Assembly (NCBI RefSeq): GCF_003334255.1
Contig: NZ_QOWU01000111.1
Direction: 5' to 3' (one strand)
DNA from: Escherichia coli
Lineage (GTDB): Bacteria; Pseudomonadota; Gammaproteobacteria; Enterobacterales; Enterobacteriaceae
DNA length: 4,153 bases
A model generated the notes under the pieces. The model had not been told where the DNA came from. It did no database searches and saw only the letters and a list, made by a program, of their open reading frames with translations. Below, one piece after another: positions 1 through 4,153 of the stretch (position 1 is the first letter of the stretch; each line of letters opens with the position of its first letter). A program made the translations under genes and the position numbers.

Positions 1-114
1 ACGCGAGGCATCGTCTTAACGAGGCACCGAGGCGTCGCATTCTTCAGATGGTTCAACCCTTAAGTTAGCGCTTATGGGTTCAAGTCCCCGATGGCGGTCC
101 ATTATCTGCATCAT

Positions 115-191
115 GCGTTGTTAGCTCAGCCGGACAGAGCAATTGCCTTCTAAGCAATCGGTCACTGGTTCGAATCCAGTACAGCGCGCCA
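115..191 (+). tRNA. tRNA-Arg, anticodon TCT (decodes AGA), 77 nt with encoded CCA
   Basis: Hand-folded cloverleaf. Acceptor 115-121 GCGTTGT pairs with 181-187 ACAGCGC (one G-U pair). D stem GCTC 124-127 / GAGC 137-140. Anticodon stem ATTGC 142-146 / GCAAT 154-158 with 7-nt loop CTTCTAA, anticodon TCT at 149-151. 5-nt variable loop. T stem ACTGG 164-168 / CCAGT 176-180 with loop TTCGAAT. Discriminator G188, CCA 189-191. Resembles the argO/argN-type tRNAs carried in lambdoid late regions (from memory, not searched). Confidence 0.85.
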
Positions 192-298
192 TATTCATTC
201 TTCCAGATTCCTTTCGGCAGAGCCTTATACTGAAATATACCTGGCTCAGGATATTGTTGAAAATATTATATGTTTGTCAAAAATAAAAGTTCTGTTAA

Positions 299-655
299 GT
301 GTTGATTGAGTGTTTGTTATACGGTCTAATGGTTTTTTCAGCATTAAATATTTATCATTCATATGGTGTGGGTAGAGTGAATATTGATGAGGCGTCGGGG
401 TGTTTCATCCTTAGGCAGCGTATTGATATAGTCAATGCAGAACGAGCAAAGGCCTTCAGCCGTTTGACAGTTTTGTTCTGTACTCCTGATCGTCTTTCGG
501 GAAGAGACGTTATTATTCTGAATAGTGATGCTATACAGAGGGTTTGCGATGAGTTCATGGTGGCTAATTCAGAATTATTTGCTCTTGTTCAGGAGTACAA
601 CAGAATAGCCAGGACCTGTGGTATGGATGAACTTCGGATTACTCATCTGGGGTAG
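299..655 (+). CDS. hypothetical protein (118 codons as drawn; true start uncertain, candidates GTG299, ATG329, GTG377)
   Basis: Open frame from the six-frame track ending at TAG 653-655. No convincing Shine-Dalgarno in front of any candidate start. 6 of 11 Arg codons are AGA/AGG (3 AGA, 3 AGG), directly beside a tRNA-Arg(TCT). AT-rich promoter-like stretch 250-298 upstream. No domain recognised by eye. Confidence 0.3.
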   Translation: MLIECLLYGLMVFSALNIYHSYGVGRVNIDEASGCFILRQRIDIVNAERAKAFSRLTVLFCTPDRLSGRDVIILNSDAIQRVCDEFMVANSELFALVQEYNRIARTCGMDELRITHLG

Positions 656-735
656 ATACATATCTGGATTATCACCGGTTACGGTAAAAAGTGATTGCTT
701 ACTGTTTTTGTGAATGGCATTGCAGCAGCCGGATA

Positions 736-822
736 ATGTCAGTGCTGGCTGACGGTGTGCTGGTGGCGGGTGTGGTGGTTGCTGCTTTCCCGTTGCTGAA
801 AAAGAAAACGCCAGACTGTTAG
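736..822 (+). CDS. candidate small hydrophobic peptide, 28 aa (MSVLADGVLVAGVVVAAFPLLKKKTPDC); frame is open back to GTG691, which would give 43 aa
   Basis: ATG 736, TAG 820-822. One uninterrupted hydrophobic stretch of about 17 residues followed by KKK, typical of small single-pass membrane peptides (type I toxin-like or leader-like). GC-rich, E. coli-like codon choice. Only a weak SD (GGAT/CCGGA) upstream. Below the ORF-track length cut-off, so found by reading. Confidence 0.2.
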   Translation: MSVLADGVLVAGVVVAAFPLLKKKTPDC

Positions 823-1047
823 CCGGGTATCAGTTAGCGGGAGAAATTTTTAAATACTTCACAATTCAGGCGGTTGACTGTTGTCTGGTTTGCGGGGAGT
901 TTGTTAAAAGAAACTGGCATGGTGAATCCCCCTGTGCGGAGGGGCAATCAGCGAGTAGGTATATGGGATAATCGCGGATTCAGGTGCTGGTACTGAATTC
1001 ACCGGGAGGCACCCGGCACCATGCAATGGCACATAGCGCCACTCTCC

Positions 1048-1083
1048 AGCCCCTCTCCGGAGGGGCTGTTTATATTGATTTTG
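1048..1083 (+). terminator. Rho-independent terminator candidate, plus-strand orientation
   Basis: Perfect 8-bp GC-rich stem AGCCCCTC (1048-1055) / GAGGGGCT (1060-1067) with 4-nt loop TCCG, followed by GTTTATATTGATTTTG. On the minus strand the same hairpin is followed by GGAGAGTGG (no U tract), so it looks unidirectional. Confidence 0.5.
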
Positions 1084-1102
1084 TCAGATGTGAGTAAACT
1101 CC

Positions 1103-1438
1103 TTATGGACTTTGTTGTTTTAGCCCATAAGGACATATTTGCAGAGTGCAACGGTTATTAAAGCATTCATTCAATACGTTATCTGTATTTGTAGGGCATT
1201 CCTGGCTGTTTTTGATTAAATTCCAGAATGTTTTATTGAATGGTACTACGTTGTAAATGGTTACAGGCAGCACTTTGTTATTGAGCATGATGCCTGTGTG
1301 AGTCAGTGTAAATATACTTTCAGGAGGTAAGAAAGCATCCGATTGATACCAGATTATTAATTTTATTTTACTCCATATGACTGAAAAAGATATTCCGCAT
1401 GATGGCTGGATAACTGTATCAATCACAATCCACTTCAT
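1103..1438 (-). CDS. hypothetical protein, 111 aa, AT-rich moron-like gene convergent with the late operon
   Basis: Only long ORF in a roughly 30-35% GC block (hand count of subsegments) where the plus strand is littered with stops in all frames. SD AAGGA about 6-7 nt upstream of the ATG at 1438 (minus-strand reading AAGGAAACTAA-ATG). Cys-containing C-terminal segment ([26 protein letters not shown]). No family recognised. Confidence 0.4.
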
Positions 1439-1478
1439 TTAGTTTCCTTGTTTATGCCTTGCTGGTGATGTTCTGAAA

Positions 1479-1505
1479 AGTATAAATGATATTTTTGATT
1501 GTAAA
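1479..1505 (-). promoter_or_regulatory. possible sigma70 promoter for the minus-strand 111-aa ORF
   Basis: On the minus strand: -35-like TTTACA (plus coords 1500-1505), 15-nt spacer, -10-like TATACT (plus coords 1479-1484), about 40 nt upstream of the ATG at 1438. AT-rich context makes chance matches likely and the spacer is short. Confidence 0.2.
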
Positions 1506-1683
1506 CCATAGATCAGAATTATTTTTCTGATGTTGTTTATTGTTTATTTAAATGCAGGGTGGTTTATATCTCGTCTTGTAGTTTATCCATGCATATCTGC
1601 TTGATGATGAGGTTTTTAATTAAGGTATGGTTTTGTGTTTTTTCTGTATTACATGTCAGGTATTTTAAAGAATCATTTTTCAG

Positions 1684-1887
1684 ATGGTGGAAAGAACCAT
1701 GGCATTTAAACACTATGATGTTGTCAGGGCGGCGTCGCCGTCAGATCTTGCGGAAAAGCTGACACATAAACTGAAAGAGGGCTGGCAGCCGTTTGGTAGT
1801 CCGGTGGCCATAACCCCTTATACCCTGATGCAGGCGATTGCAGCAGAAGGTGATGTGGTGGTCAGTGGTGCAACTGAGCCGGAGTGA
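1684..1887 (+). CDS. DUF1737-like small phage protein (67 aa from ATG1684; alternative start ATG1699 preceded by GGTGGAAAG)
   Basis: Sequence MAFKHYDVVRAASPSDLAEKL...GWQPFGSPV resembles, from memory, the DUF1737 domain that occurs as small standalone prophage proteins and as the N-terminus of nanS-p-type esterases found between Q/stx and S in lambdoid prophages. Stop TGA 1885-1887. Confidence 0.6.
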   Translation: MVERTMAFKHYDVVRAASPSDLAEKLTHKLKEGWQPFGSPVAITPYTLMQAIAAEGDVVVSGATEPE

Positions 1888-2042
1888 TACTACGTCATCG
1901 TACTGGCCCGGCATTCCAGGCCATAAAAGACGGTCTGGCAGTGGGACTAAATGCACTGACGCTGACGGATATTACCAAAAATGCAACGTATGGCGTTGAG
2001 ATAGAAAGTCTGGTGCTGGAGATAAATGCACCGGCATCATCA
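1878..2042 (+). pseudogene. possible 3' remnant of a larger gene (frame shifted relative to the DUF1737 ORF)
   Basis: A different frame is open from 1878 to TAA 2040-2042 and translates to a protein-like tail (...[50 protein letters not shown]) with no ATG start (only GTG1884). Together with the upstream DUF1737 ORF this looks like an internally deleted multi-domain gene. Could alternatively be a small overlapping ORF or chance. Confidence 0.3.
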
Positions 2043-2130
2043 TAAAAAGTGAGCCAGTCAAATGGAAGGTATCGTTAAACTCACCGGTAGTGTCAGTGGG
2101 TCGTCTGAGACGCCTGCATGAGTTATCAGA

Positions 2131-2160
2131 GCCATCAGTACTTAACTGGTGGCTTTTTTA
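2131..2160 (+). terminator. Rho-independent terminator immediately upstream of the holin gene
   Basis: 8-bp stem GCCATCAG (2131-2138) / CTGGTGGC (2146-2153) with one G-U pair, 7-nt loop TACTTAA, followed by TTTTTT (2154-2159). Confidence 0.6.
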
Positions 2161-2194
2161 TTGTTGTCAGCTTCCGGATAACGGGAGACGGGGT

Positions 2195-2410
2195 ATGTAC
2201 CAGATGGAAAAAATCACAACAGGTGTGTCATACACCACGTCAGCGGTGGGAACGGGCTACTGGTTCCTGCAGTTGCTGGACAGGGTTTCCCCGTCTCAGT
2301 GGGCGGCAATAGGCGTGCTGGGGAGTCTGCTGTTTGGGCTGCTGACATATCTGACTAACCTGTATTTCAAAATCAAAGAGGACCGGCGTAAGGCGGCGCG
2401 GGGAGAGTAA
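2195..2410 (+). CDS. S: class II holin (phage 21 S21-like pinholin), 71 aa, probable dual start Met1/Met4
   Basis: Protein [71 protein letters not shown] is near-identical in the C-terminal two thirds to phage 21 S as I recall it. Two TMDs (a Gly/Ala/Ser/Thr-rich TMD1 and a hydrophobic TMD2) with a charged C-tail. SD GGAGA before ATG2195, second in-frame ATG at 2204. The ORF-track entry 2090..2410 is the same frame, but its extension runs through the terminator hairpin. Confidence 0.9.
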
Positions 2411-2414
2411 AGTG

Positions 2415-3305
2415 ATGAATAAAAAATATGAACTGGTTGTTAAGGGGATAAATAATTACGGGGATAAGGTTACTGTTACTGTGAAGCCGGAAGGTGACGG
2501 GCAAGCGTCGCTGTTGTTGCCAGATGTGGCGATTAGTCTTGACCGTACTGAAGGTGCCACGCTGGAGTTTTACGAAGCTGAGGCGAAAAAGCAGGCGAAG
2601 CAGTTTTTCATGGATGTTGCTGCCGGGTTATGTGAAGGGGATGGTCCGTTGCCGGAAAAGCGCCCCGTAATTTTAGAGGCGCAGGATGTGTTGATAACCT
2701 ACAAAGGAAAGCTACCGGGAAGAATTACTTGTTCTCTGAAGATGCCGCCGTCAACACTGCGGTCAGAAAAAGATGATGTTGAATCACGTATTGAAAAACT
2801 GGAGAGCTACGTCGTTGAGCTGAATAAGAAATGGTCGATATTGGTGCCTTCTGGCGATGAAAAGCAGTTTGCTGCGTTTGACGATTATTGTCGGAAAGTG
2901 ATGAGCAGAAATCTCGCAGAGTGTTTCAGTATTCATAATGATAATTTCAGTGACCCGGAATGGGAGTGTAACCGGCCATCCTTTGTTGTATCCGGTGATG
3001 CTGGGAAAATAACCATCTCAGAAAATGGGAAAGTAACACCTCCATCGCACCAGCACAGTGAGGAGCTCATTGAATTTGCCATTGATTACCTGAAGAACAA
3101 TAAAAAGCAGGGGCTGATGAAGCGCGTTGGCCGTTGCATGGGATATCTGCAGGTAGCTGCTGAGATTGAAGCGCTGGCCAGTGGTGCTGATAAGGATGCA
3201 ATTGTGCGGGAGGCTCTTCTTCGTGATTTTAATACTCCACCCTTTAAAAAAGTGCCGGCTTACTGGCTTCATCCGGGGCTGACTTATCTTAAAGTGCGTA
3301 TTTAG
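2415..3305 (+). CDS. hypothetical protein, 296 aa, inserted between holin and endolysin (function unknown)
   Basis: Long clean ORF with ATG at 2415 (GTG at 2412 also in frame). SD GGGAGAG at 2401-2407 sits 7 nt upstream and overlaps the last codons of S, whose TAA stop (2408-2410) lies between SD and start, i.e. translational coupling. No signal peptide or TM segment and no catalytic motif recognisable by eye. Stop TAG 3303-3305. Confidence 0.7.
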   Translation: MNKKYELVVKGINNYGDKVTVTVKPEGDGQASLLLPDVAISLDRTEGATLEFYEAEAKKQAKQFFMDVAAGLCEGDGPLPEKRPVILEAQDVLITYKGKLPGRITCSLKMPPSTLRSEKDDVESRIEKLESYVVELNKKWSILVPSGDEKQFAAFDDYCRKVMSRNLAECFSIHNDNFSDPEWECNRPSFVVSGDAGKITISENGKVTPPSHQHSEELIEFAIDYLKNNKKQGLMKRVGRCMGYLQVAAEIEALASGADKDAIVREALLRDFNTPPFKKVPAYWLHPGLTYLKVRI

Positions 3306-3341
3306 TGGGCCAGGGACAGCGGCTGAATATTTAATATATCC

Positions 3342-3875
3342 ATGAACACCAAAATCAAATACGGCCTGTCGGCTGCCGTTCTGGCGCTGATTGCCGCTGG
3401 TGCGCCTGCGCCTGACATTCTCGACCAGTTTCTGGATGAAAAGGAAGGCAAGCACACCACAGCATACCGTGATGGTGCGGGTATCTGGACCATCTGCCGA
3501 GGTGCCATCATGGTGGATGGTAAGCCTGTGATTCCTGGCATGAAGCTGTCGAAGGAAAAATGCGACTGGGTTAACACTATCGAACGGGATAAGGCGCTGG
3601 CGTGGGTGGAGAAAAACATCAGAGTGCCACTGACCGAACCCCAGAAAGCGGGGATCGCGTCATTCTGTCCGTACAACATTGGTCCCGGTAAGTGTTTCCC
3701 GTCGACGTTTTACAGACGAATTAATGCTGGTGATCGAAAAGGTGCCTGCGAAGCGATTCGCTGGTGGATTAAGGACGGTGGCAGAGACTGCCGTATTCGT
3801 TCAAACAACTGTTACGGTCAAGTATCCCGTCGTGACCAGGAGAGCGCGCTGGCGTGCTGGGGTATCGACAGATAA
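3342..3875 (+). CDS. R: SAR endolysin (phage 21 R21-type lysozyme, T4-lysozyme fold), 177 aa
   Basis: N-terminal weakly hydrophobic Gly/Ala-rich signal-anchor-release segment (GLSAAVLALIAAGAPAP). Catalytic triad spacing E35-x8-D44-x5-T50 (EGKHTTAYRDGAGIWT) seen directly. Overall very close to lambdoid/Stx-phage R proteins as I recall them. No strong SD upstream (36-nt gap after the previous stop). Confidence 0.92.
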   Translation: MNTKIKYGLSAAVLALIAAGAPAPDILDQFLDEKEGKHTTAYRDGAGIWTICRGAIMVDGKPVIPGMKLSKEKCDWVNTIERDKALAWVEKNIRVPLTEPQKAGIASFCPYNIGPGKCFPSTFYRRINAGDRKGACEAIRWWIKDGGRDCRIRSNNCYGQVSRRDQESALACWGIDR

Positions 3876-3965
3876 GCAGAATATTTTGCTGAAAAATGAG
3901 GAATGGCCACGCGGGCGGATAACACGAAATCCTGCGAACTGGCGAAACGTAAGTGAATAAAAGTA

Positions 3966-4008
3966 AAAACCCCGTTTGTTGGCACCAAGCGAGGTTTTGT
4001 GTTTCTGA
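3966..4008 (+). terminator. weak candidate stem-loop/terminator downstream of R
   Basis: AAAACCCCG (3966-3974) can pair with CGAGGTTTT (3990-3998) with one mismatch around a 15-nt loop, followed by GTGTTTCTG. The stem is A/U-rich at its base and the loop is long, so this is marginal. Confidence 0.2.
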
Positions 4009-4031
4009 CCTTGAGTAAGGCAAGGGAGAAC

Positions 4032-4153
4032 ATGGCGAAGTATAAACGAATTCTGTTGAGGTTGACTATGAAAAATGGCCTTGAACTGAAAGCGCCTGTA
4101 ACTGATGACATCAGCAGAGCACTGGCTTTTGCCATTAAGTGGGTGGCGGTCGG
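4032..4153 (+). CDS. hypothetical protein, 5' partial (runs off window end); occupies the slot between R and the expected spanin genes
   Basis: ATG4032 preceded by purine-rich SD AGGGAGA (4023-4029). Frame open to the window end (MAKYKRILLRLTMKNGLELKAPVTDDISRALAFAIKWVAV...). N-terminus is not TM-like, so not an Rz i-spanin. In Stx-type prophages an antirepressor-like gene sits between R and Rz (recollection), which may be what this is. Confidence 0.45.
   Translation, partial: MAKYKRILLRLTMKNGLELKAPVTDDISRALAFAIKWVAV

Follow-up and report, generated by a model that had tools for sequence, protein, structure and literature searches.

What is encoded by the AT-rich block at positions 1103–1683 of this 4,153-nucleotide stretch of Escherichia coli DNA (the whole of which was analysed and is called the window here)? 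A preliminary description, made from the letters and a list of open reading frames, had interpreted the block as a convergent moron with its own ribosome-binding site and promoter, whose 111-aa product belonged to no recognisable family. We find that the gene is already known, having been named iraL and characterised in 2014, and that it occurs here with an identical protein and with the same promoter hexamers and start. The block is, in our judgement, almost certainly the iraL cassette of a lambdoid prophage, with a product that binds RssB and stabilises RpoS, and no result speaks against this reading. As a discovery this carries little weight, and its value lies in correction and in context.

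The open frame and the identity of its product

Computing base composition on the window, we found a GC of 0.325 over 1103–1683 (0.351 in the iraL coding region and 0.290 in the 245 bp upstream of it, 1439–1683) against 0.514 in the left flank (700–1082) and 0.513 in the right flank (1684–2400), which bears out the contrast with neighbours of about 50% GC that had been described from hand counts. The plus strand of the block is as rich in stops as had been claimed (10, 10 and 16 by frame over 1103–1683), and the minus strand carries the 111-aa frame, opening on an ATG (Table 1). By itself the length of this frame is only modestly unusual (p~0.02), as runs of at least 112 open codons arose in ~1.8% of blocks simulated under a Markov-1 model, the observed run being 111. 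With length such weak evidence, the status of the frame as a gene rests on homology, dN/dS and published experiments.

Table 1. Features of the iraL cassette and its immediate surroundings in the window (position 1 is the first letter of the stretch).
Feature	Position	Strand	Remarks
STnc100-family prophage sRNA	888..1077	plus	Rfam RF02076, 132 bits vs gathering 47, E=4.5e-30
Intrinsic terminator of STnc100 sRNA	1047-1068	plus	terminator scan; convergent with iraL
Variable cassette, ~630 bp	1070..1698	unstranded	begins right after the STnc100 terminator, stops short of the nanS-p ATG
iraL CDS	1103..1438	minus	111 aa, ATG start; RssB anti-adaptor, IraM/IraL family
5' UTR, 33 nt	1439..1471	minus	start at 1471 from published 5'-RACE
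Shine-Dalgarno AAGGA	1445..1449 (1449->1445)	minus	6 nt before ATG; inside published 5' UTR
-10 TATACT	1479..1484 (1484->1479)	minus	positions -13 to -8; same as CFT073
-35 TTTACA	1500..1505 (1505->1500)	minus	positions -34 to -29; same as CFT073
AT-rich cassette upstream region	1506..1698	unstranded	GC; contains PhoP-box-like repeat
nanS-p N-terminal remnant (DUF1737)	1699..1887	plus	RefSeq of 99.98%-identical genome; phrog_143 positions 1-58/634

Comparing the product with named proteins, we found all 111 of its 111 residues identical to those of IraL from the uropathogenic E. coli strain CFT073 (c1429, WP_000871291.1), and the gene in the potB prophage of that strain, which bears this RefSeq accession, has a translation equal to that of the window ORF. 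The two coding sequences differ at 2 of 336 nt, both synonymously, and the window gene thus lies within the IraL lineage as delimited in the literature, namely by a nucleotide identity of 95% or more with iraL of CFT073 across the whole coding region (PMC4045071). It was the IraM homologue of CFT073 that was renamed IraL and characterised (Hryckowian 2014, mBio, PMC4045071). The window gene falls outside the K-12 IraM lineage, which is delimited by at least 95% identity together with a PhoP-dependent promoter, since its identity to K-12 IraM (NC_000913) is 62% in amino acids over 107 residues and ~71% in nucleotides, so that the RefSeq name ‘IraM’ is to be read as a family label and not as an orthologue call. 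That family is itself recognisable, as NCBIfam model NF007393 (“anti-adapter protein IraM”) scores 162 bits, above its curated cut-off of 121, and covers residues 1–110 of 111; to describe the protein as lacking any recognisable family was therefore wrong. A Pfam-A scan of the window protein returned nothing even at E<=10. PF11183, which we take to be the PmrD family, is listed for close homologues in precomputed annotations, unlike in our scan of the window protein, a discrepancy that presumably reflects differing Pfam releases.

The substitution pattern had been put forward as a check on whether the frame is coding, and it favours coding. Among IraL, K-12 IraM and a third allele from Stx2a-converting phages (see below), dN/dS values are 0.168, 0.166 and 0.085 by the Nei-Gojobori method, and the differences between the three alleles are concentrated at third codon positions; as judged from these substitutions, the comparison shows iraL to be under purifying selection. 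So modest a length and an empty Pfam-A scan might suggest a frame that is open by chance, in a block that is a non-coding AT-rich spacer, regulatory or H-NS-bound. We give this next to no credence, as it would have to accommodate dN/dS of 0.09–0.17 with a third-position excess, a curated HMM match above cut-off, a family spread over the Enterobacteriaceae, a homologue, 62% identical, whose structure has been solved, and published experiments at the protein level.

Promoter and regulation of iraL

The AAGGA motif and the TTTACA and TATACT hexamers that had been picked out from the letters are all present on the minus strand (Table 1), and the choice of promoter proved correct, with the 5'-RACE start lying 7 nt downstream of TATACT. 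Aligning the published iraL 5'-RACE sequence to the window (1471->1440), we recovered 31 of 32 bases, with a match in 0 of 200 shuffles, and the resulting 33-nt UTR agrees with the published ‘-100 to +33’ construct (PMC4045071), in a study that assigns a sigma-70 promoter to iraL. The spacer between the hexamers is 15 nt, which is suboptimal, and the real promoter was absent from our consensus scan because that scan needs a spacer of 16–18 nt. The minus-strand sites that the scan did return (1546->1518 and 1387->1360) were dropped for their mismatch with the mapped start.

Across 1041–1720 the window differs from CFT073 by 12 SNPs, of which the two in the coding region are the synonymous ones noted above, and the hexamers are unchanged. 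A further four, one of them at position -1, lie within the UTR and promoter region (1441, 1472, 1499 and 1513), so that the window copy, in a host other than CFT073, may differ from it in expression level. Expression in the lysogen during ordinary growth, as the preliminary description had anticipated, accords with the published log-phase activity of iraL (PMC4045071), and we infer that the window copy is expressed and acts likewise in its own host. 

At 29% GC, the region upstream of the gene is a plausible candidate target of H-NS. K-12 iraM is reportedly repressed by H-NS. The iraL mRNA is up by 1.6 log2 at 37 C relative to 23 C (PMC12890032), a rise that is compatible with partial control of an H-NS type and is no proof of it, and full silencing of iraL is unlikely given that IraL is active in unstressed log phase in LB (PMC4045071). 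IraL is also elevated in a CFT073 fur mutant. Scanning 1439–1700 for a Fur box, we found a best site of 12 of 19 bases, a score reached or exceeded by 61% of composition-matched simulations; with no Fur box above chance, direct Fur control of iraL was rejected, and the effect of the fur mutation on IraL is probably indirect.

A further possibility is that IraL is the functional equivalent of K-12 IraM, which would make it controlled by PhoP/PhoQ and induced by Mg2+ starvation rather than constitutive across growth phase. The RefSeq name would suit this reading, and a PhoP-box-like direct repeat (TGTTTA-TTGTT-TATTTA, 1534–1550 on the plus strand) lies at -63 to -79 of the iraL start, with a similar repeat (CGTTTA-TTCTT-TGTTTA) at the aligned position of the Stx2a-phage allele. 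The repeat carries one mismatch, however, and 23 of 200 shuffles of the window contain at least one such one-mismatch match, so we treat it as a weak candidate and a lead only. DNA homology between K-12 iraM and the window is limited to the coding region (1119–1440), and the stop of homology at its ends indicates that the iraL and K-12 iraM promoters are unrelated. Where K-12 IraM is PhoP-dependent and induced by Mg2+ starvation, IraL is reported to be active in unstressed log phase and to interact with RssB in a pattern unlike that of IraM, and neither Mg2+ nor PhoP is addressed in the iraL paper (PMC4045071). Weighing these points, we consider equivalence to K-12 IraM improbable.

Fold, RssB contacts and the cysteine tail

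Function has been assigned by published work on the identical protein (PMC4045071): deletion of iraL shortens the log-phase half-life of RpoS from ~5 to ~2.5 min, single-copy iraL under its native promoter raises RpoS stability again, and IraL binds RssB, by two-hybrid and pull-down assays, through the RssB N-terminal domain only. In the mechanism that we propose on this basis, iraL would be read leftward, from a sigma-70 promoter that is its own (start 1471), independently of the late operon and convergent with it, to give a protein predicted to consist of a PmrD-like beta-barrel plus helix (residues 1–78) and a Cys-rich tail. This protein would bind the adaptor RssB, reportedly via its N-terminal receiver domain, and would most likely occlude the RpoS-binding face of RssB; RssB bound to IraL would be unable to deliver RpoS, the stress sigma factor, to the protease ClpXP, RpoS would remain stable in growing cells, and the lysogen would thereby be primed for stress.

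Structure prediction, which had been recommended for this protein, returned a PmrD-like beta-barrel of antiparallel strands, with a hairpin and a single helix within residues 1–78, that matches IraM. A phmmer search reached the IraM chain of PDB entry 8TWD (8twd_A) at E=9e-32, the AlphaFold (AF2) model superposes on that chain with a target-normalised TM of 0.91, an rmsd of 1.2 A and 65% identity, and a model from a deeper alignment (35 sequences) has a mean pLDDT of 86, with 89–97 across residues 1–80. Beyond 8twd_A, PmrD structures were the sole significant matches of the structure search. PDB matches to Kti11/Dph3 zinc proteins (E 0.26–0.9, residues 9–47) fall in the beta-barrel and not in the Cys tail, and were judged to be chance.

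The likeness to PmrD deserves weighing, since PmrD (4HN7, 2JSO, 2RQX) has the same unusual beta-barrel plus helix fold, and PmrD and IraM/IraL alike bind a response-regulator receiver domain. Fold matches to 2jso, 4hn7 and 2rqx at a Foldseek probability of 1.0, together with the homologues that have a precomputed PF11183 match, could be taken to mean that IraL is a PmrD-like connector shielding another phosphorylated response regulator, such as PmrA. PmrD, however, has PmrA~P as its target and is 14–20% identical to IraL, as against the 65% identity of IraL to IraM over the aligned core; the Cys-rich C-terminal tail is not found in PmrD or in relatives of PmrD length; and published work on the identical protein demonstrates direct binding to RssB and an influence on RpoS. 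We therefore regard a PmrD-like role as highly improbable, and the comparison indicates that IraL has the PmrD fold and is probably no PmrD orthologue.

To the RssB-binding reading, the crystal structure of IraM with RssB (PDB 8TWD), solved with residues 1–78 of K-12 IraM, adds contact residues in three clusters, which we compared with IraL. All five residues of the cluster facing the RssB N-domain (the 4-5-5 face; I4, I6, W22, K26 and I42) are identical in IraL. The cluster on the RssB C-domain retains 3 of 5 (with T13S and L75I), and that on the RssB linker 2 of 4 (with H63N and I64V, Pro66 being kept). This pattern would fit the reported N-domain-only binding of IraL, as opposed to the contacts that IraM makes with both RssB domains, and with C-domain and linker contacts only partly conserved the 8TWD complex can serve as no more than an approximate template for IraL. 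Taken side by side, K-12 IraM (YcgW/ElbA, b1160) and IraL have in common the family model, the fold, the RssB N-domain contacts and a tail with four cysteines.

A Cys-bearing C-terminal region had been noticed in the preliminary description, and it is present, with C81, C92, C97 and C102 arranged in the motif CP-x9/10-C-x4/5-C-x4-CP[YF]G at residues 81–107 (window 1118–1198, minus strand), a signature derived in this analysis and not a published criterion. Across 12 Escherichia alleles, C81, P82, C92, C97, I101, C102, P103 and G105 are invariant and the residues between them vary. Searching 1.84 billion representative proteins with a profile, we recovered ~50 relatives of 107–125 aa, leaving out of the family alignment matches of 400–3000 aa with 5–10 short stretches, which we judged to be noise from beta-strand repeats. 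When 35 members were aligned (24–73% identical to IraL), W72, C81, C97 and C102 are the only invariant columns, C92 and P103 stand at 97% and P82 at 91%. The four cysteines and two prolines rank in the top twelve positions of the family by conservation, although these 35 members were chosen for a match running through the tail, which biases the alignment towards conserved tails. As a check on this bias, short relatives without the Cys motif look truncated or frameshifted. Motif-bearing members come from at least eight genera that the source records name (Salmonella, Citrobacter, Enterobacter, Klebsiella, Cronobacter, Kosakonia, Dryocola and Intestinirhabdus). RssC of Salmonella and the other ‘IraM’ homologues of Enterobacteriaceae belong to the same family, whose relatives recovered with the profile in Salmonella, Citrobacter, Enterobacter, Klebsiella, Cronobacter and Kosakonia have 107–125 aa and the same Cys motif; the Enterobacteriaceae homologues are 24–41% identical to IraL, and rssC was given as 49% identical to iraL (PMC4045071).

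With an alignment of 12 sequences, AlphaFold placed residues 84–111 at pLDDT below 50, and with 35 sequences the tail rose to ~70, with a short helix and a beta-bridge. The IraM structural paper removed residues 79–107, calling them less conserved and flexible and full-length IraM unstable, and since IraM cut in this way retains its binding to RssB, binding does not require the tail. Its description as less conserved is true on average (mean column entropy 2.41 in the tail vs 2.19 in the core) but overlooks the Cys motif, and our literature search found no discussion of this motif. Tentatively, and with more doubt than confidence, we suggest that the tail may be a conserved four-cysteine module, CP(G)N-x8-C-x5-C-x4-CP[YF]G, that binds metal (zinc in the simplest case) or acts as a redox switch. 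Were this so, IraL and IraM would be post-translationally gated sensors and not simple stoichiometric blockers.

The cassette, its slot and its spread among prophages

We compared the window with related genomes to place the cassette in its prophage. Positions 76–4153 are 99.98% identical to E. coli G1/2, in which the order runs from Q through tRNA Ile-Arg-Arg, DUF3927 (TciB-like) and the sRNA region to iraL on the minus strand, followed by the DUF1737 nanS-p remnant, holin, a YdfR-like gene, lysozyme, Rz and terminase. Positions 78–2750 are 95% identical to CFT073, and synteny there is the same (Q, tRNA Ile-Arg-Arg, DUF3927, iraL, nanS-p, holin). The gene thus has the orientation opposite to the late genes that had been claimed for it, and this gene order makes iraL transcription convergent with the late operon; Q-dependent late transcripts, to which the iraL message would be antisense, may interfere with it. 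Together with its protein, promoter hexamers and mapped start, the IraL of CFT073 (YcgW, c1429) occupies the same prophage slot, from the tRNAs to nanS-p, and nanS-p is internally deleted in the window and in CFT073 alike; the two differ in that an IS421 end interrupts the upstream tRNA-Arg(TCG) in the window, and in CFT073 the tRNAs are preceded by an IS200. K-12 iraM differs in location from iraL with its late-region slot, as it lies beside e14. It has been described as being on e14 (PMC4045071), and in RefSeq e14 ends at 1211412, 268 bp before K-12 iraM (1211680–1212003). The hairpin at 1047–1068 was also considered as a bidirectional terminator that could serve iraL and was rejected, the T-run being on the plus strand only, which is not canonical.

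The contents of the slot differ among related phages. JLK-2012 and phi296 share sequence with the window up to ~1069 and again from the nanS-p ATG (1699), with 170–230 bp of unrelated DNA between; in strain 205 the slot is occupied by genes with a TolA C-terminal domain; and Stx2_EH1910 holds a homologous cassette with a divergent allele. A presence/absence survey, which had been proposed at the outset, showed that 1446 of the 5426 complete genomes of E. coli carry the block (~27%, by megablast of 1050–1720), nearly always as a single copy per genome and annotated ‘anti-adapter protein IraM’, with the unrelated DNA of some phages as its counterpart. Its composition and its variable slot support the description of the block as an AT-rich, horizontally acquired, self-contained cassette in a lambdoid late region, and with its own mapped promoter, a GC of 0.33 against 0.51 and a slot whose contents differ among related phages, the reading as a moron stands. 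Lambdoid morons (the stx slot, bor, lom) resemble iraL in having their own promoter, deviant GC, patchy presence and a benefit that falls to the lysogen and not to lytic growth. They differ in cargo, which for stx, bor and lom is a toxin or an outer-membrane protein; iraL encodes a regulator of host proteolysis and runs towards the late operon.

A third allele, of 107 aa, is present in the Stx2a-converting phage Stx2_EH1910 (2753–3076 on the minus strand of the retrieved locus). It is 73% identical to IraL and 65% to IraM, its promoter region is divergent, and it sits in the iraL slot directly after stx2B and an STnc100-like element. It occurs in 236 of the 5426 complete genomes, with O145, O111, O26, O157 and O103 strains as its best listed matches, and it too is labelled ‘IraM’. 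Our literature search found no study of this allele, and a paper on stx2a flanking regions is without mention of it. The RefSeq product name ‘IraM’ hence conceals at least three Escherichia lineages with promoters that are unrelated or divergent. The slot that iraL occupies, from the STnc100 terminator to nanS-p and just downstream of stx in Stx phages, is prone to recombination, so that with prophage traffic control over the general stress response would be redistributed between strains of E. coli. If the reading of the tail as a cysteine-gated sensor were true, the Stx2a-phage allele would tie RpoS stability to carriage of a Shiga-toxin prophage, and we regard the four-cysteine tail and this allele as modest leads for work on RssB and RpoS.

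Several smaller observations concern the rest of the window. Positions 1–75 are not prophage and match a multi-copy element, which occupies a median of 3 places per genome (23 at most) and occurs on plasmids as well; strain 205 has it as the right end of an IS4-like IS421 that lies between tRNA-Ile and the last tRNA-Arg. Of tRNA-Arg(TCG) the window keeps just the 3' part (76–101), and for this reason ARAGORN and Rfam detect a single tRNA here against three in the intact relative. Just downstream of the tRNAs, at the position of stxAB in Stx phages, a 108-aa ORF (329–655, plus strand, 35–41% GC) matches phrog_2873 (unknown function) over its full length at 235 bits, has no Pfam or NCBIfam match and lacks annotation in those RefSeq records that we examined; this ORF may represent a second moron. 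The small DUF3927 ORF (691–822, plus strand) matches a PHROG moron family, ‘TciB-like inhibition of cell division or resistance to colicin’. STnc100 has been related to PasD sRNAs in a 2026 preprint, and a partial ‘hypothetical protein’ pseudogene that RefSeq places at ~907–1032, on the strand opposite STnc100, is probably spurious. The internal deletion of nanS-p (SASA esterase) leaves a 62-aa ORF that corresponds to phrog_143 positions 1–58 and an ORF at 1884–2045 (plus strand) that corresponds to 582–632 of 634, such that the remnant is without ~1.6 kb relative to O104:H4 and Stx phages. Between holin and lysozyme, an intact 297-aa ORF (2412–3305, plus strand) matches phrog_1085, of unknown function, end to end at 626 bits, and the RefSeq annotation of the 99.98%-identical genome takes in the first third of it only, as a partial ‘YdfR family’ pseudogene.
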